From the NCBI GenBank assembly GCA_965219415.1, contig CBDCNP010000002.1, positions 864,001 to 928,000 on the forward strand: a stretch of 64,000 bases of DNA, read 5' to 3'. Below, piece by piece: positions 35,227 through 63,356 of this stretch. The stretch's first letter is position 1. Every line of letters starts with the position of its first letter. Source of the stretch: Candidatus Marinacidobacterales bacterium. GTDB taxonomy: Bacteria > Acidobacteriota > Vicinamibacteria > Marinacidobacterales > DATDRI01. Position numbers and translations under genes: made by a program. Under the pieces are notes generated by a model. It did not search any database, was not told the origin of the DNA, and saw only the letters and a program-made list of their open reading frames with translations.

Positions 35227-35556
35227 CTGCACCCATAACTCGAGTTAATACAAGCAATTGCGGGCTTACCGCTCGGTCGCGGGGAATCCCCGACGGCTTT
35301 AAAAGGTTGTAAACAAAGCGCTTCTTTGGCTGGGGAACCGACTTCCCGACCATTGGGGACCATTCGATGGTCCCGAGGGCCATTACAGTCCGGATTCCGG
35401 CTAGTTCGTTGATTTCTGGTAGCTTGCGCGGTTCGACTCCCCTATTTTGTATCGCGTGTCGATTCATTTGTTCGTTTATGTTGGTGGGAGGATACAACTT
35501 ATTTCTCAGACTCCCCCAACCATAACCGCCCTATAACCGAAGAGGTGGAGTTTCTC

Positions 35557-37614
35557 ATGCATCGACCGGTCAAGTACGTTGAAAAGGCTGTCACCTACGT
35601 CGCAAACGGTGCGTGGTTCGTCTTCGAGAGACTGAACCGCGTCCGTCCCAGGCCCTCGTTCACACCTAAGTGGTCGGACAAACCGCTGCAGAAGTCGTGG
35701 CAGAAGACCAAGCCAACTCTGGGCTGGCCCCGGACAACGGACTCCTTGTGTCCGAAGTGCATCCCGGAGGCGCGGGACCAGATCATCAACGGCGATGCGG
35801 ACTACAAAGTCTTCATCAACGAGAAGGTCGGAGAGATCAAGGCTCAGATCATCGAGCGTGACGGGAACATCATGATGGTCAAGGACTGCCCGCGGCACGG
35901 GCACTTCGAGGACCTCATGGCCATCGATACCGATTTCTTCGCGCACCTCGAGAAGACGTTCCCCGGTCGGGACATCCGCGCCCACAACGACTCCAAGCTT
36001 CACAATCACGGCAGCAGCACCATCAAGCACGGCCGGGGGTCGATCCTCACTATCGACCTTACCAACCGCTGCAACATGATGTGTGATCCTTGCTTCATGG
36101 ACGCCAACCAGGTCGGCTTTGTCCACGAGCTCACATGGGATGACGTGAAACAGCTCCTCGACAATGCCATGACCATCAAGCCCAAGCGCCAGATGTCGGT
36201 GCAGTTCTCGGGTGGCGAGCCTACGATGTCCCCGTATTTCCTCGATGCGGTTCGTTACGCAAGGAAAGTAGGCTACATCAGCACCCAGGCAGCAACCAAC
36301 GGGATCGAGTTCGCCAAGAGCACGACGTTTTGCCGAGAGGCCGCAGAGGCCGGCTTGCGCTACGCGTACCTGCAGTTCGACGGTATCGGAAACGCCGCCA
36401 ACTCGCACCGTCGCGTCGGCAACCTCTTCGACGTGAAGCTCCAGGCGATCGAGAACCTGTACTCCAACGGCGTCGACATCGTACCGGTCATCACCCTCAT
36501 CAACGGTATCAACAACGAGCAAGTCGGTTCGGTGGTCCGGTTTGCGCTGGATAACCCCAAGAAGATCCCGTTCCTCTCGTTCCAACCGGTGTCCTTCACC
36601 GGTCGCGACGAGGCGATCACCCCGGCGCGGCGCATGGCGCAACGCTACACGCTGTCTCACCTCGCACACGACGTGAAGAACCAGACCGGACTCGGCGAGC
36701 CGGCGCGCGATTGGTTCCCGATTTCGTTCCTAGGAACCTTCTCCGACTGGGCGGACCTCGTTCACGGTCCGGAAAAAGATTGGGGCCAGTTCGCCTGCGG
36801 CTGCCACCCGAACTGCGGCGTGGGCATGGCGGTCATGGTCGACAAGGAAACCAAGGAGCGGGTACCGGTCACGGCGTTCTTGAATGCCGATCGGCTATCC
36901 ACGGATATCGCCACCCTGAATGACGCGGCGCGAGGAAAGTTCTGGTCGGCTTTCGGCATGGCGTTGTCGGTGACGCGAAACTACGATTCGTTCAAGTCCC
37001 CGACCCACTTCACGCTCAAGGCCTTCCTCGAGAAGTTCGACAAGACCTACAACGTGACCGGAAAGAACTACGGCAAGGTCACCGGCGACCGGACCATGGC
37101 GGACATCGAGAAGCGGCGTGCCGACCGGTGGAACTTCCTGTTCATCGCCGGCATGTGGTTCCAGGATCTGTTCAACTACGACTTCCGTCGCACCGAGCAG
37201 TGCATCATCCCTTATGCCACGCAGGAAGGCGAGATCTCCTTCTGTGCCTACAACACTGGCGTTGGCTGGCGTCAGATCATCGAGAAGATGCATCAGACGG
37301 CAACCATCCACAAATGGTATGAGGAGCGCGGCCGACATCTCATCTACGCCGGCGGCAAGGAAGTCGATCTGCCATCCAATGGGCACTCTCTCGTGCTAAA
37401 CCAGACCGACGTCGATCACGGTGTGCAAACCGATCTCGACGAGAAGGGTATCGCCAAGAATGCTCGCGACGAGAAGCGGCAGGCCCGTGACGCGCAGCTG
37501 GTCAAGACGCCTGAGGACGAGCGGATGGCAAAGCTCTACGAGGAAGTAGTCCTCAAACAGACGCCGAGCACACCGCAACAAGACATCGTGAAGATCGATC
37601 AGATCGACGTCTAA
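35557..37614 (+). CDS. tes: Radical SAM protein, tetraether lipid synthase (Tes/GDGT-MAS, MJ0619 family) homolog
   Basis: SLCPKC..KDCPRHG, DLTNRCNMMCDPCF, QFSGGEPT, ATNGI, YLQFDG, FQPVSFTGR, HPNCG, MWFQDLFNYD..CIIPYAT..FCAYN; RBS GAGGTGGAG. Confidence 0.8.
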   Translation: MHRPVKYVEKAVTYVANGAWFVFERLNRVRPRPSFTPKWSDKPLQKSWQKTKPTLGWPRTTDSLCPKCIPEARDQIINGDADYKVFINEKVGEIKAQIIERDGNIMMVKDCPRHGHFEDLMAIDTDFFAHLEKTFPGRDIRAHNDSKLHNHGSSTIKHGRGSILTIDLTNRCNMMCDPCFMDANQVGFVHELTWDDVKQLLDNAMTIKPKRQMSVQFSGGEPTMSPYFLDAVRYARKVGYISTQAATNGIEFAKSTTFCREAAEAGLRYAYLQFDGIGNAANSHRRVGNLFDVKLQAIENLYSNGVDIVPVITLINGINNEQVGSVVRFALDNPKKIPFLSFQPVSFTGRDEAITPARRMAQRYTLSHLAHDVKNQTGLGEPARDWFPISFLGTFSDWADLVHGPEKDWGQFACGCHPNCGVGMAVMVDKETKERVPVTAFLNADRLSTDIATLNDAARGKFWSAFGMALSVTRNYDSFKSPTHFTLKAFLEKFDKTYNVTGKNYGKVTGDRTMADIEKRRADRWNFLFIAGMWFQDLFNYDFRRTEQCIIPYATQEGEISFCAYNTGVGWRQIIEKMHQTATIHKWYEERGRHLIYAGGKEVDLPSNGHSLVLNQTDVDHGVQTDLDEKGIAKNARDEKRQARDAQLVKTPEDERMAKLYEEVVLKQTPSTPQQDIVKIDQIDV

Positions 37615-46437: not shown

Positions 46438-49400
46438 CTACTTGCAGGGGAGGAACCGGACCGTAGTCTCCATCTCCTCAAGCACGTGTGCCAACGCCGA
46501 TATCGTCTGGTCGATGTCTTCTTCCTTCGCGCCGTGAGATAAAGACAGCCTTACCGCGCAGTGCGCCTCCTCCTCGGTTCGTCCCATTGCCATCAGCACA
46601 TGAGTCGGTTTGGGAGAGCCCGATTTGCATGCGGAGCCCGATGATAACGAGATCCCGTGTTGGTCGAGCGCCACCACCAGCGATTCACCGCGTAACCCCG
46701 GCAGGGTCAAGTTGAGAGTGTTGGGAAGCCGGTTGTCGGTAGGGCCGTTCAGTCGAGCCTTCGGCACTAGTCTTCTGATACCTGCCTCCAGTTTATCTCT
46801 CAGAACCGTGAGGTTGTCGCCGTCCTTGACGGCCTGAAGGGCGAGCTCCGCTGCCTTGCCCAATCCCACGATCGCCGGCACGTTCTCGGTCCCCGCCCGG
46901 ATACCATTCTCCTGCTTGCCACCGTGGATGAGCGGCTCGAGGCGGACGCCGGTCTTGACGTAGAGCACACCAATACCCTTGGGCCCATGGAACTTGTGAC
47001 CCGACAGGCTGAGCATGTCCACGTCGAGATCCTCCACATCGACCTTGATCTTTCCGACCGCCTGAACAGCGTCGGTGTGGAACAAAACGCCCCGCTCGTG
47101 CGCGATGGCACACAACTCTTTGATCGGAAGAATCGTCCCCACCTCGTTGTTGGCCATCATGATGGAGACGAGAACGGTGTCGTCTCGGATGGCTTCCTTC
47201 AGTTCCTCAGGAGCCAGCCAGCCGTCTTCGTCAACGTTCAGGTACGTGACTTCGTAGCCGAGTCTCTCCAAGAAGCTACCGGCCCCCAGAATGGCAGGAT
47301 GCTCGATCGAGGTGGTCACGATGTGCTTGCCCTTGTCCTGATGCGCGAAGGCAACGCCCTTGAACGCCAGGTTGTCCGCTTCCGATCCCCCGCCGGTGAA
47401 TATGATCCTCCGCGGCCGGGTGTTGATGAGCTTGGCCACTTGACGGCGTGCATTATCGACCGCTTCCCGGGCATCCCGACCCACCCCGTGGATGCTCGAA
47501 GGGTTGCCAAGGACCGCCTCCAAGAAAGGAAGCATGGCTTCGCGCACTTCATCGGCGACCCGGGTGGTCGCGTTATTGTCGAGATAGATTCTCTTCTGCG
47601 GTTTCTTCCTTTCTTGGGGCGAAAAGAGTTGCGGTTCGCAAACGCTTCCCGAGCGCACCGCGGTGCGTCGCGTCGCCTCGGTACCCTCTTCGGTTCGAAC
47701 CACCTCACAAAGAAGCGCTTTATAGACCGGAAACCCGGAGATCTCGTCATAGTTTGTTAGGTCCGTCAGCTCGTTGACGTTCCACTCCTGCCATGCCTTG
47801 GGACCCACTGGTCCGCCGCCGCCCATGTTGCACTCGACGGCGCCCTTCACGATGTCTTGGGTGACCCGAGCCCGGAACGGAACGGCCCCTCGAGGGGTTC
47901 GCACTTCCACGAGATCGCCGGTCTTGATGCCCCGCTCCTCCGCATCCTCGAGGTTGATTTCCACGGTGGGCTCGGGGTTGTCCTTTGCCAATCCGTCGAC
48001 CCCATGGTGCTGGGAGCGAAAATCGGTATGAGGGCGGGCACCAGAGTTGAAAACGAGGGGGAAGCTCGCTGCCACATCGGGACTGGCCAGCGGTCCTTCC
48101 TTCGGCTCGACGTACTTTGGTAGCGGTTCGTACCCGTAGTCCTCGAGGACCGTGGACCAGATCTCGAACTTACCTGTCGGAGTATCGAAACCCGGCTTCC
48201 CGTCGTTTCGAAGAGCCCCTTTCTCCCATTTCTTGTACTCCACCATCGCGGTGGGGATCTTGACCGACCCCCCCTTGGCCTTGACCTCCTCGAGAGTATG
48301 ACCCGACCCTTCGAGGGCGAGGCGGATCATCTCCTCTTCGGTCTGAGGGTAGAGATGCCCGTAGCCTAGCCGCTCAGCCAGCTCCGCCATGATCAGATAG
48401 TCGTTGCGAGATTCCCCGACGGGGTCGATCACTTTCTCTCTCAGCTTGAAGATGGGACCGTAGGTCATGTAGGAGTCGATCTCGAACATCGTGGTCGCGG
48501 GAAGCACAACATCTGCGTACGCGGAGTCGGCAGTGAGCTGGCGGTCGATGCACGCCACGAAGTCCAGCTTCGAAAGCATCTCCCGCCAGGTCGTCGTCTC
48601 GGGCCAGGAAGTCAGGAGCGACGCGCCATGAATAAGTAGACCTCGAATGCGATAAGGCTCTCCCTTCAAAACGGCGTCCAAAAGCCCGCTGGCGTGGGAC
48701 TCCTCGCGATAATGTGTGTAGATGGGAAACTTATCCCGTGCCACCGCCAGATCGGTGTCCGGGTTTTCTTGATTCGCAGACCGGTTGATGGGGAAATGGC
48801 TATCGAGCATGCCGAGCCCGATGCCACCGGGAACATCTAGTTGACCGGCCAGGGCGAACAATGTGTGTACTGCACGAATCGCCTGGATTCCAGTGTTGGA
48901 ATACTCGAGTCCGGTGTACATCACCGGGCAGGCCCCCGTCGCGTAATTCAGTCGTCGCGCCAGCTCCCGGATCGTCTCCGCCGGAACGCCGGTGATGGAT
49001 TCTGCGACCTCGGGACGGAAGTGCTGTACGTAGGTCTTCAGCTCTTCGAACCCGTGACACCAATTCTCGGCGAAATCCTCGTCGTAGAGTTCCTCGTCGA
49101 TCATGACCTCGATCATGCTAAGAGCCAGAGCGCCGTCGGTACCAGGGCGGATCGGAATCCACCTGGCGTTGGTACGCGTTGCGGTCTCGGTGTTGCGCGG
49201 ATCGATGACCACGATCTCTGCCCCACGCTTCGCCGCGGCTTCCAGTCGGTGCATGTCGAGGGGAGGAGAATCGGTAGCCGGGTTAGCCCCACACACGATC
49301 AACATCTCGGCATTTTCCATGTCGGTAAACATGTTGACGAGCATGCGTCCCATGGTGACGTGAGGAGCGATAATGGCGAAGGACACGTAGCAGAGTGCTC

Positions 49401-49878
49401 CGACTCCCATCGTGTTCGGGGAACCGAAGGGGAACAAAACACTGGAGGCGGAGGACACACCAACCCCTTTGGGTTGGAACGTGTCGCAAAGGGATAATTC
49501 GAATGAGCCGCGACCGGTGTAGACTGCGACCGCCTCTGGGCCTGATTCTTCTTTGATCTGGGTTAGGTTCTTGGTGATGAGGTCGTAGGCTTCGTCCCAG
49601 GTGATGCGCTCGAACTCATGGCTGCCCTTGGGGCCTACGCGCCGCATGGGGTATTTGAGGCGGTTTTCGGAGTAGATGATCTCGGGAGAATGCTGACCCC
49701 GACGACAAATCATTCCGAGGGGATGGGAGGCGTCCTGCTTGATATTCACCAACTTCCCGTCGTCTAGACCCACTTCCACCCAGCAGCCGGCTGGACAGAT
49801 TCCGCAGATGGCGCTTTTCCACTTAAGCTCCTTCTTCTGTTGTTCGATTGGATCTAGGACGGTTTCACTTTGACTCAT
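46438..49878 (-). CDS. Fusion: bis-MGD molybdopterin oxidoreductase + IscS/NifS cysteine desulfurase
   Basis: CGICPAGC..C Fe4S4 motif, GALCY, IRPGTDGAL, ADVVLPA, RSQHH; then YLDNNATT, FTGGGSEADN, HTDAVQ, SGHKFHGPKG, SSGSAC in one uninterrupted ORF. Confidence 0.92.
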   Translation of the reverse strand: MSQSETVLDPIEQQKKELKWKSAICGICPAGCWVEVGLDDGKLVNIKQDASHPLGMICRRGQHSPEIIYSENRLKYPMRRVGPKGSHEFERITWDEAYDLITKNLTQIKEESGPEAVAVYTGRGSFELSLCDTFQPKGVGVSSASSVLFPFGSPNTMGVGALCYVSFAIIAPHVTMGRMLVNMFTDMENAEMLIVCGANPATDSPPLDMHRLEAAAKRGAEIVVIDPRNTETATRTNARWIPIRPGTDGALALSMIEVMIDEELYDEDFAENWCHGFEELKTYVQHFRPEVAESITGVPAETIRELARRLNYATGACPVMYTGLEYSNTGIQAIRAVHTLFALAGQLDVPGGIGLGMLDSHFPINRSANQENPDTDLAVARDKFPIYTHYREESHASGLLDAVLKGEPYRIRGLLIHGASLLTSWPETTTWREMLSKLDFVACIDRQLTADSAYADVVLPATTMFEIDSYMTYGPIFKLREKVIDPVGESRNDYLIMAELAERLGYGHLYPQTEEEMIRLALEGSGHTLEEVKAKGGSVKIPTAMVEYKKWEKGALRNDGKPGFDTPTGKFEIWSTVLEDYGYEPLPKYVEPKEGPLASPDVAASFPLVFNSGARPHTDFRSQHHGVDGLAKDNPEPTVEINLEDAEERGIKTGDLVEVRTPRGAVPFRARVTQDIVKGAVECNMGGGGPVGPKAWQEWNVNELTDLTNYDEISGFPVYKALLCEVVRTEEGTEATRRTAVRSGSVCEPQLFSPQERKKPQKRIYLDNNATTRVADEVREAMLPFLEAVLGNPSSIHGVGRDAREAVDNARRQVAKLINTRPRRIIFTGGGSEADNLAFKGVAFAHQDKGKHIVTTSIEHPAILGAGSFLERLGYEVTYLNVDEDGWLAPEELKEAIRDDTVLVSIMMANNEVGTILPIKELCAIAHERGVLFHTDAVQAVGKIKVDVEDLDVDMLSLSGHKFHGPKGIGVLYVKTGVRLEPLIHGGKQENGIRAGTENVPAIVGLGKAAELALQAVKDGDNLTVLRDKLEAGIRRLVPKARLNGPTDNRLPNTLNLTLPGLRGESLVVALDQHGISLSSGSACKSGSPKPTHVLMAMGRTEEEAHCAVRLSLSHGAKEEDIDQTISALAHVLEEMETTVRFLPCK

Positions 49879-50075
49879 GGAAATCCCCTCGATGCGACGG
49901 CGAGGCCGCCGCACGGCCGCTTGTTTCTTCGATTAGGTAAATTCAATGTCTCGTTTTCGTACCGCGAAAATTCAAAGCCGTCTAACCTAGGCGATCGTAA
50001 TTGGAAACGATGAGCGACGCAAGTGGGTTGAGTGACTCGCACTCATATTCAATTTCGGCGATACTTCAGCCGATC

Positions 50076-52869
50076 TCACTTGTCATACCAGTGATCTTGC
50101 AGGATGACGGCCTCCCCGCGCAGCACCGTACCATCAACCCATAGCTCGACGGTGTATTCGCCCGGCGCCACGCGGAAATACGCGTAGTCGCGCTCGGTGA
50201 TACCGGCCTCGGCGTGAACACGCGTTTGGAGCGATCGTCCCCACTTGTCCACCTCTTCATCGGGAGCGCCGTAAAAATCCACCGTGTCGTAGTAGTCGAA
50301 GAACTCTTCCTCGTCTGCGGATTCCTTGTCCCATTCTTCCCAGCGCTCGATTTCCTTCGAGGTCCGTTTCCCTTCGCTTCGTCATACCCCACTCGACACT
50401 GTTGAGCCCGGCCGCCCCGGAGCCCTTTATCTCATTTATCAGCCGCGTCCCGTCGTAGATCCGGATCGACACGCCATCCGGGCGTTCTCCCTTCGAGTAG
50501 TAATTAACAACCACTCCGTGTGGCTGGTTTTCGCCCTCGAAATTCTGCGCACTCACCGCTGGCTGGCTGGGCATGACCCATTGCACCTGGGGCTCGATCT
50601 CGAACAGGTGTACGTCTGAGGCCAATAGCTCTTGGGTGAGCTCCTGCAAGGGAGAGATGTCGGTAATGTAGAATCCCCGGCCGTGAGTGCCCACCACGAG
50701 ATCGTTCTCTCGCGGGTGTATGACGAGGTCATGAACCGCGACGGTGGGTATGTTATTTTTCATCCGCACCCAATTCCCGCCGCCATCCAAGCTCGCATAC
50801 ACGCCCCCATCGGTTCCGACGAAAAGTAAATCGGGATTCTTTCGGTCTTCCTTGATAACGTTGACCGACTGCTGGGGCAGGTTGGAAGCGATCGAAATCC
50901 AGGACTTGCCGAAGTCTGTGGTCTTGTAGACGAATGGCCTAAAGTCATCGCGACGCAGTCCGGTGAAACTCAAGTACGCAGTTCCCACGTCGTGATGAGA
51001 GGCGGTGACTCGGGTCACCCAGTAGCCTGGATTGTCGGGAACATTCCCGTTCAGGTCCGCCCAAGTCTCACCGCCGTCCTTCGAGAGCTGCACGTTCCCA
51101 TCGTCGGTGCCCACCCAGAGAACTCCCTGTTCAATGGGCGATTCGTCGACGGTAGTGATGGTGCCATAGCTCACCGCGCCGACACCTCTGTATTTGCTGG
51201 AGTCGTTCTTGGTTAGATCGGGACTCACTGTCTCCCAACGCTCGCCTCGAAACGGAGACCGCAGCAAGACATTAGCACCCACGTAGAGGACGTCGCTGTT
51301 ATGCGGCGAGATGAGAAGCGGCGTATTCCAATTGAACCGGCGGTCGGAGTCACGGTCACCGAGAACCGTTTTTCGAACTCCGGTCTTCTGATCGATCCGC
51401 TGAATATGTCCGAATTGAGAACCGCTGTAGAGCCACCGGCTGTCTGTTGGGTCTACCTGATTGTAGAACCCATCCCCTCCGTTCATGTGCTCCCAGTCCT
51501 CGAACCGAATCGGAAAACGACCCTTTTTCGTGCTAGGCCCCTTCCAGGAGCCGAAATCCTGCGTTCCGCCGTAGACGTTGTAGGGGTAATCCATATCGAT
51601 CCCAACCGCGTAGAGCTGCGCCATCGAAAGCTCATCGGGGTGGTACCATTGCGCCCCCGCGTCGTGGGTGATCGCCATCCCGTAGTCATAACCCATGATC
51701 ATGTGCCGGGAGTCGGCGGGGTCGATCCACAGGACGTGATTATCCCCTCCGTAGCGAATCGGGAGGGTCCAGGTCTTGCCTCCGTCCGCGGATACATCCA
51801 CCCTCGAGCTCAGCACGTAGAGGTGGTCCTCGTCATTGGGGTCGACGATGATCTGGCCGTAGTAGTTGGACCGGTTGCCGATGCTCTCGCCCTCCTTGCT
51901 GACTCGACGCCACGACTCTCCGGCGTCGTCGGAGCGATAGATCCCATGGCCCACCGTCGGCTTACTGGCTCGCTTTCCATCGAAGAGCTCGCTCCGCCTA
52001 ACGTCATCGGAAACGCCGGGAGAGTTCGCATTATCGATCGTCGCGTAGAGGATACGCGGATTCCTCAAATAGATGTCGATGCCGATCTTCCCGAGCATGC
52101 CGCCGGGCAAGCCGTTTTCGAGCTTTCGCCACGACTTCCCAGCGTCCGTTGATTTGTGGATGCCACTGCCCGGCCCCGCGGTCCTGAAACTCCAAGGCAT
52201 CCGCATTCGGTCATAAGCGACGGCGTAGAGCGTATTCGGATCGTCGGGAGACACGATGACTTCGGTGGCGCCGATGTGCCTTCCTTCTATGACGACTTCG
52301 AGCGATTTGGTCCATGATTTCCCACCGTCCGTTGTCTTATACACGCCTCGCTCGGGATTCTCCGTGTAGAGATGCCCTTGCGCGGCGACGTAAACAATTT
52401 CGGGGTTTTCAGGATGGATAAGAACGCGACCGATGTGGTGAGATTCCAGCAACCCCATGTGCTCCCAGCTCTCGCCACCATCGAGGGACCGGAAGATCCC
52501 CTTGCCATAATAGGTGCTGTTCCGAAGGTTTGCTTCGCCGGTGCCTACCCATACGATGTTGTCGTTCGACGGAGCGACGGCGACATCACCAATCGATGCA
52601 ACGTCCTCGTGGTCGAAGACCGGTTCGAACGTTGTTCCGTTGTTGACGGTCTTCCAGACCCCGGCCGGCCCAGCGGCGACAAGAAACGTTTGCGGGTCCT
52701 GCCGAGACACGGAAACCGCGACTACTCTCCCCCCTTGGCGAGTAGGCCCGATCTCCCGAAAGACGAAATGATTCAAAAGCACGGATGGAGCAGGCAGCGC
52801 AGAAACGTTCGGTAGACCTGGAGCGAAAACGATAACGACGAAAAGTAGGATTATTCTTTGGCTTCGCAT
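50076..52869 (-). pseudogene. Secreted VPS10/BNR-repeat (sortilin-like) glycosyl hydrolase-type protein, frameshift near 50370
   Basis: FREIGP..GGRV, many SxDGGxxW Asp-boxes, GTHGRG; acidic C-terminus and VAPGEYTVEL in another frame. Confidence 0.85.
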
Positions 52870-52895
52870 GGGAACTCCCCTATATACGAAAATTA

Positions 52896-52905
52896 TGATA
52901 TATCA
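52896..52905. promoter_or_regulatory. Palindrome TGATATATCA in a 45-bp divergent promoter region (possible operator)
   Basis: Perfect AT-rich palindrome between divergent starts; cognate regulator unknown. Confidence 0.35.
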
Positions 52906-52914
52906 CACGTCCGA

Positions 52915-53976
52915 ATGAACAGCTGGCGGAAGATAACCGGACATCCACTCGTCCTACTGGCTTCCCTCGTCACGGCATGTGGCAACGCCGATCCCGTTGT
53001 CGACGTCCCCGAGGAAGTCACCCGCTTGCAGGACGTAGCGGCAGGCATCGAAACGAACGCACAAGGGTACGGGGAAGCCAAGATAGCAGAGGGCCACGTG
53101 ATGATCGAGGTTCCGGCTGGGAATTTCACGATGGGCACCGACGACGGCCCCGAGAACGAGCGACCGGCACACACGGTCTACCTGGACGACTACTGGCTAT
53201 CGAAGCATCCGGTGACGGTGGGGCAATTCAAACATTTCGTCGAGGAAACCGGTTACCTCACCGATTCCGAAAGAGGGGTCGGATGCTGGGTGTTCGTAGG
53301 AGAGGAATGGGAGCCGAGGTTGGACGGCACGTGGAAAAACACTTACTTCCAACAAGAAGACTCCCATCCGGTGGTCTGTGTGAGTTGGTACGACGCGATC
53401 GCATACGCGGACTGGTTCTCCGAGAAAACCGGCGTCGGGTTCAAGCTGCCCACCGCGGCGCAGTGGGAGAAGGGCGCCAGGGGCAACGACTCGCGAACCT
53501 GGCCGTGGGGCAACGAGATTCCTGACGGAACGCGAGCCAACTACGCCGACACCAAATACTGGAACAAGTATGGCGAGGCACGGGTCGCGGACAAGGACGT
53601 CGACGACGGCTACGTCGAAACGTCTCCGGTGGGAAGCTACCCGGCCGGTGCGTCTCCCTATGGGCTACTCGACATGGCCGGCAACGTGTGGGAGTGGTGC
53701 CACGACTATTATGCCGGCGATTATTACTCGCGATCACCGGATCGCAATCCTCTCGGCCCCGCGGAAGGTAGAGTAGGCGACGATGGCGTTGCCGATCGCG
53801 TCAACCGGGGTGGCGGGAGCTGGACCGACCGCTCCGGCCATCTCACCACGGAGGGTGGTCACAACCTGCGATCCGCCGGGCGAACCGGGGACGGCGACAA
53901 CAGCAGCGACGATCACATGGGTTTCCGTCTCGCCATCGACGACGTCATTCGCCCGCAACACTCGAGGCCGCAGTAG
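52915..53976 (+). CDS. FGE/SUMF1-fold lipoprotein (lacks catalytic FGE cysteines)
   Basis: Lipobox VTAC; PAGNFTMG, HPVVCVSWYDA, LPTAAQWEKGARG, GLLDMAGNVWEW, GFRL. Confidence 0.88.
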   Translation: MNSWRKITGHPLVLLASLVTACGNADPVVDVPEEVTRLQDVAAGIETNAQGYGEAKIAEGHVMIEVPAGNFTMGTDDGPENERPAHTVYLDDYWLSKHPVTVGQFKHFVEETGYLTDSERGVGCWVFVGEEWEPRLDGTWKNTYFQQEDSHPVVCVSWYDAIAYADWFSEKTGVGFKLPTAAQWEKGARGNDSRTWPWGNEIPDGTRANYADTKYWNKYGEARVADKDVDDGYVETSPVGSYPAGASPYGLLDMAGNVWEWCHDYYAGDYYSRSPDRNPLGPAEGRVGDDGVADRVNRGGGSWTDRSGHLTTEGGHNLRSAGRTGDGDNSSDDHMGFRLAIDDVIRPQHSRPQ

Positions 53977-55494: not shown

Positions 55495-55509
55495 CGAGTG
55501 AGGTGATTG

Positions 55510-56857
55510 ATGCCAACGAACCGGATCCTGCTCATGCTCGTGTTCTTGGTTGCGACAGGTCAGGGAACGCGCGCCACCCAAGAAAGTAAGAAGGAAGAGA
55601 CCGCCGAGGAGTTCATCGCCCGCGTCAATAAGGAGCTCGACGATCTCGGCAAGGAGGCCGCCGCCGCTTGGGTCCGTGCAACCTACATTACCCCCGATAC
55701 CGCGGTTCTGGCCGCCAAGGCTCAATCGCGTTTTCTCGAGTATCAGAATCGAGTGGTGGAAGAGTCGAGGCGCTACCTGGATGAAGATGTGGGGGCCGAT
55801 GCCGCCCGATCGCTCAGGCTGCTCAAGTTGCAGGATACGCGCCGGCCGGCGCCCGCGGATGCAGCGAAGCGCGAGGAGCTGACCGACCTGTACCAGGAGC
55901 TCACCGGCGCCTACGGCGAAGGCAAGTATTGTCCCGGAGGTGAGGACACTTGCAGGACGTTACCGGAGTTGGAACGGGTGCTCGCCGAAAACCGAGACTA
56001 TGACGAGCTATTGGACGCTTGGCAGGGGTGGCGGACCGTCTCGCCGCCCATGCGTGGGTCCTACACTCGGTTCGCAGAGCTGGCGAACGAGGGCGCGCGA
56101 AACCTTGGGTTCCAAGACCTCGGACAAATGTGGCGCTCCGCCTACGACATGAGCCCGGATGCATTCGCACAAGAGACGGAGCGGCTTTGGAGCCAGGTAG
56201 AGCCCCTATACGAGCAGCTGCACTGCTACGTCCGAGCTCGGCTGGGCGAACATTACGGAGAGGGGACAAAGTCCCCGCCGATGGACCCATCCCCGCCCAT
56301 CTCCTCGGAAATATGTGGGCGCAGGAGTGGGCCAATATCTACGACCTGGTGGAGCCCTATCCCGGTGTGGCGAATCCGAATGTGGGCGAGGCCCTCGTCG
56401 ATCAAGACTACGATGCGGTGCGCATGACGCAACTCGCAGAGGGCTTTTTCGTCTCTTTGGGCATGCCCAACCTTCCGGAGACCTTCTGGGAGCGATCCCT
56501 GTTGACCAAACCGCGTGACCGCGAGGTCGTATGCCACGCCAGCGCCTGGAACATGGACTCGGGAAAGGACGTGCGCATCAAGCAGTGTATCGAGCCCACT
56601 TCGGATGAGCTCGTGACCGTGCATCATGAACTGGGGCACGTCTACTACTACCTGTACTACGGCCACCTGCCCGCTCTCTATCAAACAAGTGCCAATCCCG
56701 GGTTCCATGAGGGTATCGGCGACACGATCCCTGGCAGGACACCTTGGAGGAGCTCACCGGCGGACGTGAGATGGATGCCAGCGCTATCATCGACTATTTC
56801 CAGCCGTTGATGGCGTGGCTAGAAGAGCAGAATCAGGGACGAACTTGCGGCTGGTGA
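55510..56857 (+). pseudogene. M2 family peptidyl-dipeptidase (ACE-like), frameshift near 56262 and internal deletion at 56729
   Basis: [33 protein letters not shown], then jumps to [24 protein letters not shown]. Confidence 0.9.
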
Positions 56858-57115
56858 TGCGGCGAACACCGGTACTGGAAACCAGCCCCCAACCCCGACT
56901 CGCGGGGCTCGAATGGAACCTCCCTACACACCTCCACGACCTCGATCGCTGAGGGATGAAGCAGCGCGCCAAGTTTCGGAAAAAAGATTCGGCGCCAACG
57001 AAAAATAGAGTAGAATCAGCAGCAAGCCCTGGGACCGGTAGGGCCTTACATCGCTCTCAATCCACTCCGAAGATCCACCGAGCCTAAGACGGTCTTCATG
57101 GCTAGGAGAAAGAAC

Positions 57116-60100
57116 ATGCCTTTCCGATCTGCAGCGAAAGTCCGTTCGCTCCTCCTCGGACTCAGCATCCTGTTGCCCGCTTCTTCTTCCTCCCTTGCGC
57201 AAGTTGCTGCCACCGATCCGAATGCGTTTCCGTTCTACAACTGGGCGGGCGCATCGGGTGATACCAGTGGCGGCCTCGTCAAGCCCTCGCTGTTTACCGG
57301 AGCGGTTGTTGTACCCATCCATATCGTGGTGCCGGCGGGCACAGGAGGCATTCAGCCGTCCTTATCACTCGCTTACAACAGCCGTCAGGGTCGCGGAAAC
57401 GCCGGAGTGGGATGGAGCCTGGGGCTTTCGAAAATCATTCGCTCCACGAAGTACGGGGCGGATAAGGCTCAGGAGTGGACGCCCTCGGAGGCGGTTTACC
57501 TCTACGGGGATCAGGAGCTCATTCGCGGCGTAGGGGAGTCCGATCCCTTTGGCTGCCCAGCTATTCGCTACCACCCTAAATCGGAAAACTTTCAAAAGAT
57601 CCTCTTCTGCGCAACGGAAGACTACTGGACCGTCCTCGGTAAGACCGGAACGAGGACGACGTTCGGGCGACACGCCGACACTCGCCATAGCAAGCTCGCC
57701 CAGGACGGCGTGACCTTCGAGTACTTCCTCGACGAGTTGACCGACCCGCACGGTCTGTCGTGGCAGGCGACTTACTCCCCCACGACCGCCTACAGCGCTC
57801 CCCGGTTGGATCGGTTGGACTGCACCTTCCACGACGGCAGCCCCTTGGGTGAGCCTCGGCGCGTAGAGATTCGGTGGGGACCAAGGCCCGATGGGAGGCC
57901 CGAGTACGTCAACCTCCGCTATGGGTTTCCGCTGTTGCAAGACCAGCGCATTGATCGATCCGGGTCATGCTCGGGTCGCGCCGGGTACGCGAATACGTTC
58001 TCGGGTACGACGCCGACAAGGATTCGGGGAACGGAGAACAGTACAGTCCGGATAGCGGCGCCAGCATGTTGCGCTCGGTGACGCTGTGCGGAACGAATGA
58101 CGACTCGTGTCTCCCGCCGCAGCTCTTCGAGTATCAGTACAACGCCCCGACACCTGGCTTCAACGAGGCACCCGTCCAGCAGCCATTCCCAAAGAGCTGG
58201 GGCGCCTCTACGCCCAACTATGGGACGCGTCTAGTGGAAGTGCGGGCGAGGCCATTACGTTAGGTGATCTCATGGACATCAACGGCGACGGTCATCTCGA
58301 CGTCGTCGAGGCCTACTGCCCTGCGTCCTCGACACTCGAGTGCAAGCCACCCGCGGTGAAGTGGCGAATTTGGCCGGGAGCCGGAGCTTCGGGATTCAGT
58401 TCGAGCCCAATCTCCTGGCCCGGTGCCGAGCACTACCTGAGACGCTCGCCTTGGGATCCCAATGACTCTGGCTCAGAGCAGGATGTTAGCTGGGAACGTT
58501 GTCGACATGAACGGCGATGGGCTTCCCGATCTGTTCACTGGTCGTTCGCTCTATCTCAACACCGGCAGTGAATTCGAAAAGAAGCCATGGAGCTGGCCAA
58601 ATGGAAACACCCAAGATTGGGTTCGCGACTACCGGCGAGTCGGCGGCACCGGCACATTCGTGGTCGCGGACCTGGTCGATGGCAATGGGGATGGGTGTCC
58701 GGACCGATTCGACATCGACGCGACGGCGGGCGTCTGGCGGTACTGGCGCAACCGGCTTTGTGATCCCGTGCCCCACGCGGGCTACGAAACCCCGCCGCAC
58801 ATGGGACTGGGGACCGGTAGTGCCCCCTACCTACCTGGGGCGCGATGTCTCCTTCACAGGGCCGATGGGCGATGGGTCTTTGTTTTACTCGACGGACGGG
58901 TTCATTGAGCTCAACGGGGACGGGCTACTCGACTTTCTATATCAGGGAAGGCTCTACCTCGGCACCGGTCGCGGCTTCCGACCGGAGACGGGCACAACCT
59001 ACGCCTCTGATCTAGTGGAGATCTTGACGGCGTTCAAAGAGATCACATCACCGTTTCTCAAGAAGTATTGGTCGAATGAGCTCGACCTCCCCACGCGTCG
59101 CCAGCTTTACGGTTTTCTCGACTTGAATGGCGACGGCCGCCGGGATTTCGTGCGCCTCGAATCGTCAGCCCATTGGAAGGTGTGGCTCAATACCGGAAAC
59201 GGTCTCAAAAGCGAGCCTCTCGAATGGCCGATGCCGATGGTATTGCAGAACGATGCCTTCCCCGGACTTCAGAAAAGCATCATGCAAGGAACCAACCCAG
59301 TCCGCCGTGTTTACGGCTGGCAACGTCTATTCGATCTGGACGCTTCTGGAGCCACGGATTTGGTCAACTATCCCCTGCTCGGTGGGTTCACACACTTCAA
59401 TTTCTTCGCCAACAAGGGCCCCGAGCCCGAGCTCCTCGTCGAGGTGACGAACGGGGTCGGGGGGTCCATTCATCTCTCTTACACGGCGAGAGTGGGTGGT
59501 GGGCTAGAGGTCCAGGTAGGAGGGGAAACTTTTGAAGGCGGCAACCTGCACTTCCCGGTGCACGTGCTTTCGAAGATGGAAGCCGACGATGGCTACGGCA
59601 ACGTCTATGCCAGCCGCTATCGATATTGGGACGCTTATTATGATTCAGAAGAACGCCGTTTCCGAGGTTTCGGTCGCGTGGAAGTCACGAGCAGCGACAA
59701 CCTTGGCGCGGCTCCTAACTACAGCCTCCACGTCTTTGCCAACGGGGATCCCTCACGCCTTATCCAACCGCCGCATACATCACAGAGTTGGCCCGACCAC
59801 CCATCGCTTGCCGGGCGGGGATTCGCGATTCGAACGGGTCCGGATCGTGGCACCATCGAATACGAACCTCGGCGATGTGACCTCGGGCGATACAACCCGC
59901 GTCGAGACACTCGTGAAATACGCCACCGAACCGCCGCTCTGGGCGGCGAGCGAGTCCAACTATGATGCCTACGGCAACGTAGTACGGTTGCAGGGACCGG
60001 AGGGAGAGCTTGCTACGATTGACTACTCGCCGGGGAGCTTCACCTATCCGATCCGACAAACGACAACTGTGACCAAAGGGAAGAGCCCCGGAGAACAGAT

Positions 60101-63100
60101 TACGCTGGTGAGCACTTCGCAATGGGACGATCGGTTCGGCGTCGTCGTAGAAACAGTTGACCCGAATCGGCGGCGGGTAGAACGCGAGCTCGACGGTCTC
60201 GGGCGGCTGGTTCTCGTGACCAGCACGCCATCGTCGGATCCGACCGCCCCGCCCATCACACTCCAATCCTTCGAGTACTCGCTCGGCACCCCGTTGGGCT
60301 CTAACTATCTGGAGCGAACCAGCGCCATAAACGAGGGTGAATACGTCGTGAGCCGAACCTATTTTGATGGGATGCTACGTTCCGTTCAAGAGAAGACACC
60401 GGCAGCCGATGGACAGTGGACGACGAAACATCGACGATACGGTCTTCACGGAGTCGAAATCGAGACCCTGCCCTTTTTCACCGGCTCTAACTCCTACACC
60501 TTCCTTCCCTACCTCCCGGCGCGACCTTTATACCGCACGGCCTACGATTGGGAGGGCCGCGTCGTCAAGAAATGGCTCGAAGACTCTAATGGCAATGCCC
60601 ACTACCCGACGGCAACCGAAACGCGTCTCTGGGATACCGTCGTGACCGATCCACGAGGAAACCGAAGGACCGCTCGCCGAGACGGCCACGGGCGGATCGT
60701 GAGAATCGAGGAACAGGAGGGCTCTACCCTTCGTGCCGTAACGCGTTTCGATTACAACCGGATCGGAAACCTTGTGCAGGTTATGGATAACGCCGGCAAT
60801 ACCACCCGACTGCAGTACGACAGTCGAGGTCTCCGGCGAGCCATGGAGGATCCTGACCTTAGCAACTGCGGCAATCCATCTGACTGCCCTTGGAGGTACG
60901 CATACAACCTCAGTGGGCAGATCATCCGGCAGGTCGACGCCAAGGGCCAACACATCGACTTTTACGCTGACGAGTTGGGCCGCGTTTACCACAAGGACTT
61001 CCAGGGCGACGACGACGTCCTTTTCTCTTACGACGAGGGTCAGAACGGACTTGGACGATTGTCGTCGGTTAGAAACGGTATCGGGAACAAGGTGTCGTAC
61101 GAGTACGACAACTGGGGCCGGACGTTGCGGCACGAGCGTACCGTTGCCGACTCCACGTTCGTGTTGAACACGATCCACGACCTCCTGGGTCGGATCACCA
61201 AAGTTCAGTACCCGACCGGTGAGACCGCGGAGTACGTTTTCGACGGCGGCGGTCGGGTCAGTTCGGTCGCGTTCAACGGGGCGGACATCCTTCGCTCGGT
61301 CGTCTACGATCCCCTATCCCGTATTGTGGAGATCCAATGGGGAAACGGCCTGACAACGAATCAGGAATACGGACCGAATGAGAAGCTCAAGTCTCTTTCC
61401 GTCGGGGGCGGGGGCGACTCCCCGCTCCACCGACTCGCGTACGAGTTCGACGAGGCGGGTAACACCAAGGCCGTGTACGTCGTCGAGGAAGCCTGGCGCC
61501 GGGTCTATGCGTACGATTGGGCCGGTCGCCTAATCGATGCCCAACACCAGGATCGTGTCGTGACGCGAACTTGCCCCGAGGGGCTTTCCTGGCCGTCACC
61601 GCTTTGCGACATCTTCATTGATTGGGAGACCCTGAAGGAATGGAGATGGGAATACGACGAGATCGGAAACATGACCTACAACTCGGACTGGGATACCGCC
61701 GATCCTTTTTCGGATGGTCGGTACAGCTACGGTTCCGGCGCCGGGCCTCACGCGGTTACCCGAATCGGAACCGCGACATCACCCCATACATTCAGCTACG
61801 ACGCGAACGGATTCATGGTCGGGGAAGGCGAGTCAGTAGGTTTCGCATACGACACGGATGGCAACATGCTCAGTGTTTCCGACGTGTCGGGAGGCACTGA
61901 TCTGGTTGCACGGTTCGAATATGACGGTGACGGCACCCGGACTCGCAAGATGGTCACCGGAAGCGAAACGGAACTCGAGATCCGCTATTCCGGCACGCAT
62001 TTCGAGGAGCTTCTTGAAGACGGAGTAAGAAGTGGCAATAGGTATGTCCTCTTGGGCAATAGCCGGGTCGCACTCATCACCGATCGAAACCCATCCAAGG
62101 TGCTCTACCTCCATCCAGACGTGCAAGGCACCATCGGCCTAGTGACCGACGAAAACGGTGAGGTGGTGCTGCGTCGACAGTTCGCGCCTTACGGAGAGCT
62201 CGAGAGCGAAGAGGGCACCGATCCCGGAGTTCGTTACGGATTCACGGGCGCCGAGCACGACCGGGAAAGCGAGCTGCTCCACCTAGGAGTGCGTCAATAC
62301 CGGCCCAAGATTGCCCGCTTCGTTCAGCCAGATAGCACCGTTCCCAACCCTGATGATCCCCAGAGTCTCAATCGCTACGCCTACGCCCGTAACAACCCAG
62401 TCCGCTATACCGATCCCAGTGGCTTCCAAGAAGAAGAGGAGGACGAATACGACCCCCTCGACCGCCACGCCAACCGGGGCGAGCTGCCACCCTCACCGCT
62501 TATGCACGTAGCCGGCGAGGGACTGATGCATGCGTCCGAATACTTCTACCTGCAGACGGCAGAGTTCGACGAGAAAGTCACCGTGCCCGTAGCATCGTGG
62601 TTCGGGGAAGAAGCCTTCCGGCGCAACCCAGACATGGCCTGGGTTGAAGCCACGGTAGCCCACTTCGGTCTTTCCTTCATTACGTTCCTTCCGAGACTTC
62701 TCGCGACGCCCGCCTGGCTCAGGAGGCTCCCGGAGCAAACCGCCAACGACATCAGCGTCCTGCACCAGAGCGATGATCCAGACGCCCGGCTCGACGCATG
62801 GCTTTCTCTCGGGGGAAATGGAGCAACCCTCCTCGGGCTGGTCGCCGGAGGGGCGAAGGCCGCCCGTGGTGCAGGTGCGCGTGGCCCTAGGCTGAACCTC
62901 TCCAGGGTGGCCGCGGGAGAGCAACGCCCGATTCTGGTGCGCATTCGATATACAGAAGCGATGGCAAGAGCTGCGGGCGATGCGAACTTCCTCCGAGCGG
63001 CGATCGAATGGGCGCAGATGGAGGATGGCGTCCAACTACGGGTCGGCGCTCGCGCGGCAACGGACGCGACTGCCCGCGCTTGGTCCAGGCGGACCATGCA

Positions 63101-63356
63101 GCGTCTCGGTTTCGATATCGAGGGCAGGCAGGCGATGCATCCGGTAGACAGCATCATCAACCCCTACTTCATGCCAGAGTACGCTGGGTACTACTTTGGC
63201 AATTCGAGCGCGAATCTCTCCATGGGCGCACAGCTCGGCAACCAGTTGCGAGGCGTGCCGTCAAATACACCGGTCTTTGTCGAGTTCGTGGGGTTTCCTG
63301 CCTACGAGGTCGCGCCTGCTATAGCACCGCCGGTGGTGCCTACGACCTGGCGCTAG
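57116..63356 (+). pseudogene. SpvB/FG-GAP/TcdB-midN + RHS-repeat polymorphic toxin (about 2070 codons, five frameshifts in the N-terminal half)
   Basis: Signal peptide; PSLSLAYNS..GVGWSL (SpvB), DxNGDG repeats, RRFRGFG, YD repeats, core QPDSTVPNP..LNRYAYARNNPVRYTDPSG, 310-aa C-terminal tip. Confidence 0.88.

Follow-up and report, generated by a model that had tools for sequence, protein, structure and literature searches.

The window, a stretch of 64,000 nucleotides from a Candidatus Marinacidobacterales bacterium, encodes on its minus strand a polypeptide which, judged by its sequence, is very probably an orthologue of metallopterin-dependent ergothioneine synthase (MES), an enzyme by which the antioxidant ergothioneine is made without O2. 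The preliminary description of this DNA knew of no characterised function for the architecture, a statement overtaken by the description of MES in 2022, the published enzyme being CaMES of Caldithrix abyssi (Beliaeva & Seebeck, JACS Au 2022; PMC9516567); the enzyme type is already known, and the window protein is an ordinary member of it. According to that account, activity, essential residues and intramolecular transfer were shown for CaMES in E. coli, the C153S variant has no activity, Cys1074 and Cys1135 are each essential (2000-fold loss), and MES orthologues yield ergothioneine in E. coli (PMC9516567).

Gene, modules and relatives

In the window's list of open reading frames, a single minus-strand frame occupies 46438..49914, and from the ATG at 49878 it runs through 1146 amino acids without stops, the length of its closest relatives. 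An in-frame GTG at 49914, upstream of this ATG, would give 12 amino acids more, and the ATG is preferred because the relatives have 1146 amino acids. The gene and its parts are as follows.

46438..49878, minus strand: gene of the putative MES orthologue, 1146 codons plus stop (open reading frame, Pfam, NCBIfam and relatives)
49669..49824, minus strand: Molybdop_Fe4S4 domain, residues 19-70, with Cys25, Cys28, Cys32 and Cys58 (Pfam PF04879, E 5e-8)
48370..49662, minus strand: molybdopterin (bis-MGD) binding module, residues 73-503 (Pfam PF00384, E 3e-44)
47716..48036, minus strand: Molydop_binding domain, residues 615-721 (Pfam PF01568, E 1e-20)
47590..47715, minus strand: inter-module linker, residues 722-763, including Cys747; weakly conserved
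46507..47589, minus strand: class V PLP cysteine desulfurase module, residues 764-1124 (Pfam PF00266, Aminotran_5, E 7e-85)

The fused Mo/W-pterin and cysteine desulfurase gene is thus real and intact: the uninterrupted frame and the Pfam and NCBIfam domains, the latter including a NifS match (TIGR03402) of 517 bits over residues 764-1136, bear out the earlier claim of a complete Mo catalytic module joined without lesions to a complete desulfurase. The motifs that had been named (CGICPAGC, GALCY, SGHK, SSGSAC and the FLPCK end) are all present and, as had also been noted, no twin-arginine motif, and hence no Tat signal, can be read from the translated N-terminus, MSQSETVLDPIEQQKKELKWK...

The objection that homologs might always be separate genes, with the fusion a local stop loss, was put to the test, and can be set aside because the best 120 database matches are all full-length fusions (1103-1202 amino acids, 74-99% identity) and relatives turn up in at least 484 stretches of species-representative genomes. 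What looks like a gene split in two in L001, the closest relative, is a frameshift within that assembly's Mo module and does not represent two genes. Among the matches listed, databases label MES-type relatives only as ‘IscS/NifS cysteine desulfurase’, a name that would conceal a complete O2-independent ergothioneine route in those 484 or more stretches.

Catalytic residues and proposed mechanism

CaMES and the window protein have the same two-module layout in a single polypeptide, of 1136 and 1146 amino acids, respectively. No Caldithrix-named protein occurs among the best 120 matches of two protein searches or in four cluster listings, and CaMES-like proxies from 61 sampled Calditrichia genomes were used in place of CaMES for alignment. 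This CaMES-like subgroup is about 59-61% identical to the window protein. One proxy, L098, agrees with the published CaMES numbering at five residues (Cys14, Cys17, Cys21, Cys48 and Cys153) and is off by one at four; it aligns with the window protein over its full length (59.4% identity over 1136 columns, 1437 bits), with all nine residues named for CaMES matched. These nine, comprising four Fe-S cysteines, the metal-ligand Cys, the PLP Lys, the persulfide Cys, a second conserved Cys on the desulfurase side (Cys1107 here) and the penultimate Cys, are found in the window protein 10 or 11 positions beyond the published numbers. Conservation was measured in 141 relatives of the window protein, in 139-141 of which each of the nine is kept. 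The cluster cysteines (Cys25, Cys28 and Cys32 of the CGICPAGC motif, and Cys58), likewise kept in 139-141 of the 141, align with C14, C17, C21 and C48 of L098. The codons of the remaining key positions, together with one variant position, are listed below.

49390..49392, minus strand: Cys163 codon, predicted Mo/W ligand, GALCY motif; 141 of 141 relatives; corresponds to CaMES Cys153
46993..46995, minus strand: Lys962 codon, PLP Schiff-base lysine, SGHK motif; 141 of 141 relatives; corresponds to CaMES Lys952
46627..46629, minus strand: Cys1084 codon, predicted persulfide-forming Cys, SSGSAC motif; 140 of 141 relatives; corresponds to CaMES Cys1074
46444..46446, minus strand: Cys1145 codon, penultimate residue of 1146, predicted sulfur-relay Cys, FLPCK end; 139 of 141 relatives, the other two being gaps; corresponds to CaMES Cys1135
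49291..49293, minus strand: Cys196 codon (TGT), Trp (TGG) in 140 of 141 relatives; strain polymorphism

By analogy with CaMES, the C-terminal PLP module (Lys962) would take sulfur off L-cysteine to form a persulfide on Cys1084, from where the sulfur would reach the Mo or W centre in the bis-MGD module by way of Cys1145 at the C-terminus of the same polypeptide. This centre, with Cys163 as its ligand, would lie in the N-terminal module, which also holds one Fe4S4 cluster. The imidazole C2 of hercynine (N-alpha-trimethylhistidine), supplied by the single EgtD methyltransferase of the genome, would attack the metal-sulfido group, and ergothioneine would be released without the participation of O2. 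We infer that the window protein performs this CaMES-type reaction in its host. The earlier suggestion that the terminal Cys acts as a sulfur relay agrees with the published mechanism (PMC9516567). The accompanying idea of a self-sulfurating Mo/W enzyme agrees with the published model in that Cys-derived sulfur reaches the metal, but not in treating the sulfido group as a one-off maturation ligand, since each turnover renews it and it is passed on to C2 of trimethylhistidine (PMC9516567). The Cys-containing linker had been singled out as well, and Cys747 does exist; as a feature, however, it is not conserved, being kept in only 96 of 141 relatives, which rules it out as a sulfur relay, and the linker (about residues 735-760) is the least conserved stretch of the whole protein among the 141.

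Position 196 sits in the WGANP segment of the relatives, and its Trp is found also in both CaMES-like Calditrichia proteins. The Cys196 allele is retained in contigs of runs X1 and X4, which belong to two studies (X1 may be the source sample), and in run X6 a strain that is almost identical carries the codon for Trp. A functionally weakened window allele, as the near-invariance of Trp and the X6 codon might suggest, is nevertheless improbable, given that the frame is otherwise intact and that the Cys allele recurs in the two studies; PsrA and acetylene hydratase both have an aligned Ile here, and the wider superfamily therefore tolerates other residues at this position. A ‘CT’ insertion at 48657 and some apparent skips were set aside, as they stem from short pieces (35-51 bases) of other contigs.

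Comparison with other molybdenum and sulfur-transfer enzymes

The best solved relatives of the Mo module by sequence are PsrA (2vpw, E 1.3e-68), the closest, and acetylene hydratase (2e7z, 3.7e-68), both of which share with the window protein one Fe4S4 cluster, bis-MGD and a Cys ligand, the Cys of their active-site segments aligning with Cys163; neither carries a fused desulfurase. The proximity of PsrA, together with the completeness of the desulfurase module, could be taken to indicate a Mo/W oxidoreductase that matures itself and acts on some unrelated redox substrate or, as had been proposed, a cytoplasmic persulfide/polysulfide reductase that frees H2S from Cys-derived sulfur. Either is extremely unlikely. 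The Tat signal and the PsrB/PsrC partners of PsrA are absent for the window protein: no PsrB/PsrC-type electron-transfer genes lie beside the MES gene in the window, where the neighbours encode a proline dehydrogenase and a Sortilin/BNR protein, or among the recurrent neighbours of 72 MES loci, and with the PhsA profile NF012032 the protein scores 278 bits where the cut-off is 694, so that membership in the PsrA/PhsA group fails. The neighbour that does recur is EgtD, orthologues yield ergothioneine in E. coli, and the published mechanism has the sulfur ending on trimethylhistidine and not in sulfide (PMC9516567).

Classification of the Mo module as an FdhF-type formate dehydrogenase fails on the Fdh-alpha profile TIGR01591 (297.6 bits against 666.25). 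Acetylene hydratase, too, is a cytoplasmic enzyme that lacks a partner subunit, but an Asp beside its second cluster Cys is catalytic; this Asp of 2e7z aligns with Pro29 of the window protein, which in addition carries the fused desulfurase, and membership fails here too. In Moco sulfurases (ABA3/MOCOS, and IscS-FdhD for formate dehydrogenase), a NifS-type desulfurase places a sulfido ligand on the molybdenum cofactor, as in MES; that sulfuration, however, is a one-off maturation on behalf of another enzyme, whereas in MES it takes place in every cycle and the sulfur leaves in the product (PMC9516567). The eukaryote-type Moco sulfurases, in which a MOSC domain comes after the NifS-like one, are further set apart by their reversed domain order and by the MOSC family itself, absent among the Pfam matches of the window protein. 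Two other ergothioneine routes, through EanB (rhodanese-type) and EgtB (non-haem iron sulfoxide synthase), start from the same EgtD-derived trimethylhistidine and reach the same product as MES, but with unrelated folds and chemistry: EgtB requires O2 and EanB draws its sulfur from polysulfide, whereas MES obtains its sulfur from cysteine by means of the fused desulfurase and passes it on via a metal-sulfido intermediate (PMC9516567; PMC10903977).

EgtD, selenium and oxygen in the host

The host encodes EgtD at G000:C3:2176771-2177703 (PF10017 370 bits; TIGR03438 366 bits, cut-off 290.9), on the same contig as the MES gene but unlinked, about 1.25 Mb away. Co-occurrence with EgtD is a further likeness to published MES: of 50 other MES-bearing genomes, 46 encode an EgtD that passes the cut-off, compared with 58 of 151 in the host's own phylum and none of 14 control genomes. 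An EgtD-type methyltransferase is present in the flanks of 28 of the 72 MES loci, and in 26 of them the gap does not exceed 200 bp. In a count of sulfur-inserting partners that covers EgtB and SenA, each of the two is above cut-off in just one of the 50 MES-bearing genomes; set against these two, MES is therefore usually the only candidate for this role. As for cofactor supply, the host has MoaA (352.6 bits, cut-off 284), MoeA_N (151.9 bits) and a full-length MobA-like gene (95.9 bits, below the strict cut-off of 151.85).

An EgtB-like match in the host (343 bits against 360) is in fact SenA (491.5 bits, cut-off 420), followed by SenB, also above its cut-off; these selenoneine genes and MES have one EgtD in common. 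The EgtD, which is not adjacent to MES, could thus serve the SenA/SenB route alone. The in-frame TGA in the host's SelD indicates that the genome uses selenium, and class I desulfurases are promiscuous for selenocysteine. These traits might be read as signs of a MES-type enzyme with a shifted substrate, using selenocysteine to form selenoneine without O2 or sulfurising another heterocycle, a possibility that PMC9516567 raises speculatively for related Mo enzymes. Such a shift appears very unlikely, in view of the median identity of 77% between the window protein and the relatives that so regularly accompany EgtD, of the rarity of SenA among MES-bearing genomes, and of the fact that none of the family-invariant residues examined differs except position 196.

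Compared with CaMES, the orthologue described here thus belongs to a different setting, in which egtD is unlinked, SenA and SenB occur as well, Cys takes the place of Trp196, and the host is an 8 Mb Acidobacteriota-like bacterium with an A-type haem-copper oxidase operon (COX1, 480 bits, and two COX3 genes on one contig). The published account states the distribution of MES as “exclusively anaerobic” (PMC9516567), which is a statement about hosts and not a defining property of the enzyme, and a strict anaerobe is not what is found here. A MES in a large, oxidase-bearing genome that also encodes a selenoneine pathway would point to a wider ecology than that of the hosts which the 2022 paper presents as ‘strictly anaerobic’. 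The chances are about even that MES is not confined to strict anaerobes and that one EgtD here feeds both MES (sulfur, O2-independent) and SenA/SenB (selenium, O2-dependent), possibly giving ergothioneine in anoxic and selenoneine in oxic phases. COX3 is present in 27 of the 50 MES-bearing genomes and, with more than half of the sample thus carrying A-type oxidase genes, the making of ergothioneine without O2 may be widespread among facultative bacteria of sediments and the sea.

The fusion gene and the MES family

The family of metallopterin-dependent ergothioneine synthases (MES) was described by Beliaeva and Seebeck (JACS Au 2022; PMC9516567). In the characterised enzyme of Caldithrix abyssi (CaMES, 1136 aa), an N-terminal metallopterin module (residues 1-718), kin to acetylene hydratase, carries the Fe-S ligands Cys14/17/21/48 and the metal ligand Cys153, and the C-terminal desulfurase (747-1136) carries Lys952, Cys1074, Cys1097 and Cys1135 (PMC9516567). 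Four homologues produced ergothioneine in E. coli given trimethylhistidine; CaMES C153S made almost none, while output fell about 2000-fold in K952A, C1074S and C1135S and just two-fold in C1097S (PMC9516567). Co-expression of the K952A and C153S variants gave no complementation, and sulfur transfer is therefore intramolecular; sulfur exchange between ergothioneine and trimethylhistidine was retained in K952A (PMC9516567). In the proposed cycle, the imidazole ring attacks the Mo(VI)=S centre, and a protein persulfide then resulfurates Mo(IV) (PMC9516567). These findings are restated in a 2023 review (PMC10903977), and a 2026 review cites the MES paper, nothing more.

The window gene (46438..49878, -) lies within an uninterrupted single ORF (46438..49914, -), has even G+C along its whole length, and encodes a product, P0001, of 1146 residues counted from the ATG at 49878, in which four Pfam domains are recognised.

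Pfam domains of P0001
Residues 19-70, Molybdop_Fe4S4
Residues 73-503, Molybdopterin
Residues 615-721, Molydop_binding
Residues 764-1124, Aminotran_5

The ORF and these domains bear out the preliminary description of a fusion encoded by a single intact gene; each motif named there is found in P0001, and the N-terminus indeed shows no twin-arginine motif that would indicate a Tat signal. The top NCBIfam match is NifS TIGR03402 (517 bits, residues 764-1136), slightly below a cut-off of 530.75 that was set for stand-alone NifS, and the NCBIfam equivalogs for molybdenum enzymes are all far under cut-off (Fdh-alpha 298 vs 666, PhsA 278 vs 694). No structures closer than PsrA or acetylene hydratase were found in the PDB copy searched with P0001.

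P0001, which is 10 residues longer than CaMES, carries Cys25/28/32/58, Cys163, Lys962, Cys1084, Cys1107 and Cys1145, each standing 10 or 11 above its published counterpart. These nine positions are kept in 139-141 of the 141 family proteins fetched and aligned, the exceptions being gaps or single substitutions. Sampling 61 Calditrichia genomes, of which 19 gave a match at E <= 1e-200, yielded two CaMES-like proteins, L097 and L098. In L098 (1135 aa), Cys14/17/21/48/153 are identical to the CaMES numbering, and Lys951 and Cys1073/1096/1134 each stand one below the published number. P0001 aligns end to end with L098, a proxy and not CaMES itself, at 59.4% identity (1437 bits), and is 60.9% identical to L097, with all nine residues matched. 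By sequence, the window gene adds an unremarkable new member to the MES family already known. A relay of sulfur to the metal, as envisaged in the preliminary description, agrees with published MES; its view that the architecture was uncharacterised had been overtaken in 2022. The alternative offered there, a persulfide or polysulfide reductase, finds no support, given the low PhsA score and the lack of a PsrB/PsrC-like or other electron-transfer partner among the gene's neighbours in the window.

Cys196 of P0001 (TGT, 49291-49293) occupies a position that holds Trp in 140 of 141 relatives and in both CaMES-like proteins, and Ile in PsrA and acetylene hydratase. The Cys codon is present in contigs of sequencing runs from two studies, X4 and X1, the latter perhaps the source sample, and the Trp codon in a near-identical strain in run X6, from a third; Trp196Cys is a real polymorphism.

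Distribution of the family

The best 120 database relatives of P0001 are all full-length fusions (1103-1202 aa, 74-99% identity) and not separate genes, which rules out a local accident such as the stop loss considered earlier; those with names are labelled just 'IscS subfamily cysteine desulfurase', 'NifS' or similar. A relative is encoded in 484 of 512 pattern-matched stretches from a species-representative genome collection. The 71 loci kept for comparison belong to MAGs that bear the labels Acidobacteriota, Dehalococcoidia/Chloroflexota, Calditrichota, KSB1, Aminicenantes, Gemmatimonadota, Latescibacterota, Krumholzibacteriia and others. Within its own clade, P0001 is 73-99% identical to other members (median 77%, 141-protein alignment). 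The Calditrichia proteins L097, L098 and L102 form a distinct subgroup, ~61-63% identical to the main clade, with the C-terminus RFVPCR (vs RFLPCK) and a spacing from the third to the fourth Fe-S Cys that is longer by one residue; the numbering of this subgroup fits published CaMES. The closest relative among the loci kept (91%) lies on a Candidatus Marinacidobacterales chromosome (Acidobacteriota, Vicinamibacteria); its MES gene (L001:7956-11439) looks split owing to a frameshift inside the Mo module, after '...IDPRNTE', which reflects an error of assembly or else a pseudogene.

MES homologues are said to occur 'exclusively in anaerobic' organisms (PMC9516567). In the own genome, the 5.7-Mb contig that holds MES also encodes COX1 (480 bits) and, after it, two COX3 genes. 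Of 50 MES-bearing genomes, 27 have COX3 above cut-off, the profile matching solely the nine oxidase-bearing organisms among the controls. As a sign against restriction to anaerobes, these genes carry the caveats of possible MAG contamination and of oxidases that serve O2 detoxification only.

EgtD and the predicted ergothioneine and selenoneine routes

In the window, the MES gene is flanked by a converging proline dehydrogenase on its 3' side and a Sortilin/BNR protein upstream, neighbours that are uninformative on function. Among ORFs called and clustered across the window and the 71 loci, the sole widely recurrent neighbour was a ~330-aa protein; the three members compared with Pfam all match the 'histidine-specific methyltransferase' family (PF10017, E 1e-99 to 1e-110). 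This neighbour is EgtD, the enzyme that begins ergothioneine synthesis by making N-alpha-trimethylhistidine (hercynine). One of 300 aa or more is present in the flanks of 28 of the 72 loci (61 of which offer 1200 bp or more of flank downstream), on the same strand as the fusion gene in 9 and convergent in 19, with a gap of at most 200 bp in 26. Two further proteins recur near MES/EgtD in Dehalococcoidia (L006:12612-13139, L005:14590-16008 and similar), one of them DinB_2/mycothiol-S-transferase-like (8 loci), the other a pyridine-nucleotide disulfide oxidoreductase (6 loci). They might act on conjugates of ergothioneine or on its disulfide.

The own genome (8.05 Mb, 3 contigs, 96% complete, 8.45% contamination) has one EgtD (C3:2176771-2177703; TIGR03438, 366 bits vs cut-off 290.9), on the contig that also carries the MES gene and ~1.25 Mb away from that gene, and the genes adjoining EgtD suggest no pathway. 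Two large ORFs without Pfam family flank it, L073:5800-7950 (-, 716 aa) and L073:9637-11601 (+, 654 aa), the latter overlapping the egtD end and having a faint, glycosyltransferase-like sole NCBIfam match. MoaA and MoeA are also encoded, as is a full-length MobA-like gene under the strict cut-off.

Among 50 other MES-bearing genomes (those of loci L001-L050, leaving out L051-L071), EgtD is above cut-off in 46 and split across contig ends in a 47th, compared with 58 of the 151 genomes that represent the own phylum (own genome counted in) and none of 14 controls. EgtB and SenA each exceed their cut-offs in one of the 50, and MES is therefore normally the sole sulfur-inserting partner visible in a search for EgtB and SenA. 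In a Gemmatimonadota MES-bearing genome (G017:C13:19297-21673), EgtD directly adjoins a true EgtB (362 bits vs 360), so that both O2-dependent and O2-independent routes are present there.

The sole EgtB-like gene of the own genome is not EgtB (TIGR03440, 343 bits vs 360) and is instead SenA, the selenoneine synthase (NF041186, 491.5 bits vs 420), followed by SenB, the selenosugar synthase (TIGR04348, 371 vs 300).

Selenium locus of the own genome
G000:C1:227988-230200 (L085:7935-10200), SenA/SenB tandem, then glycosyltransferase genes

SenA is also found in the genome of the closest relative. Together with a SelD containing an in-frame TGA (C3:3889655-3890587), the tandem suggests that selenoneine is made by a pathway drawing on the same single EgtD as MES. 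One EgtD may thus feed both branches, and finding it here argues less strongly for MES function than it does in other genomes.

Other features of the window

Two genes upstream of MES, a secreted or lipoprotein-like protein with an FGE-sulfatase domain (52858-53976, +) was rejected as EgtB, being a weak partial match (80.9 bits) without a DinB domain. A Tc-toxin-like run (57098-63356, +) consists of several overlapping or abutting ORFs, not single large genes.

Tc-toxin-like domains
57098-58081, +, SpvB
58517-59965, +, TcdB_toxin_midN/FG-GAP
59532-63356, +, RHS/YD-shell

A 306-aa ORF (55507-56427, +), overlapped by another at 56019-56810, covers just positions 2-227 of the 581-position Peptidase_M2 (angiotensin-converting-enzyme family) and may represent an M2 peptidase that has been truncated or frameshifted. 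A radical SAM protein of 689 aa (35545-37614, +) has an N-terminal HMPTM-type zinc ribbon (PF23545).
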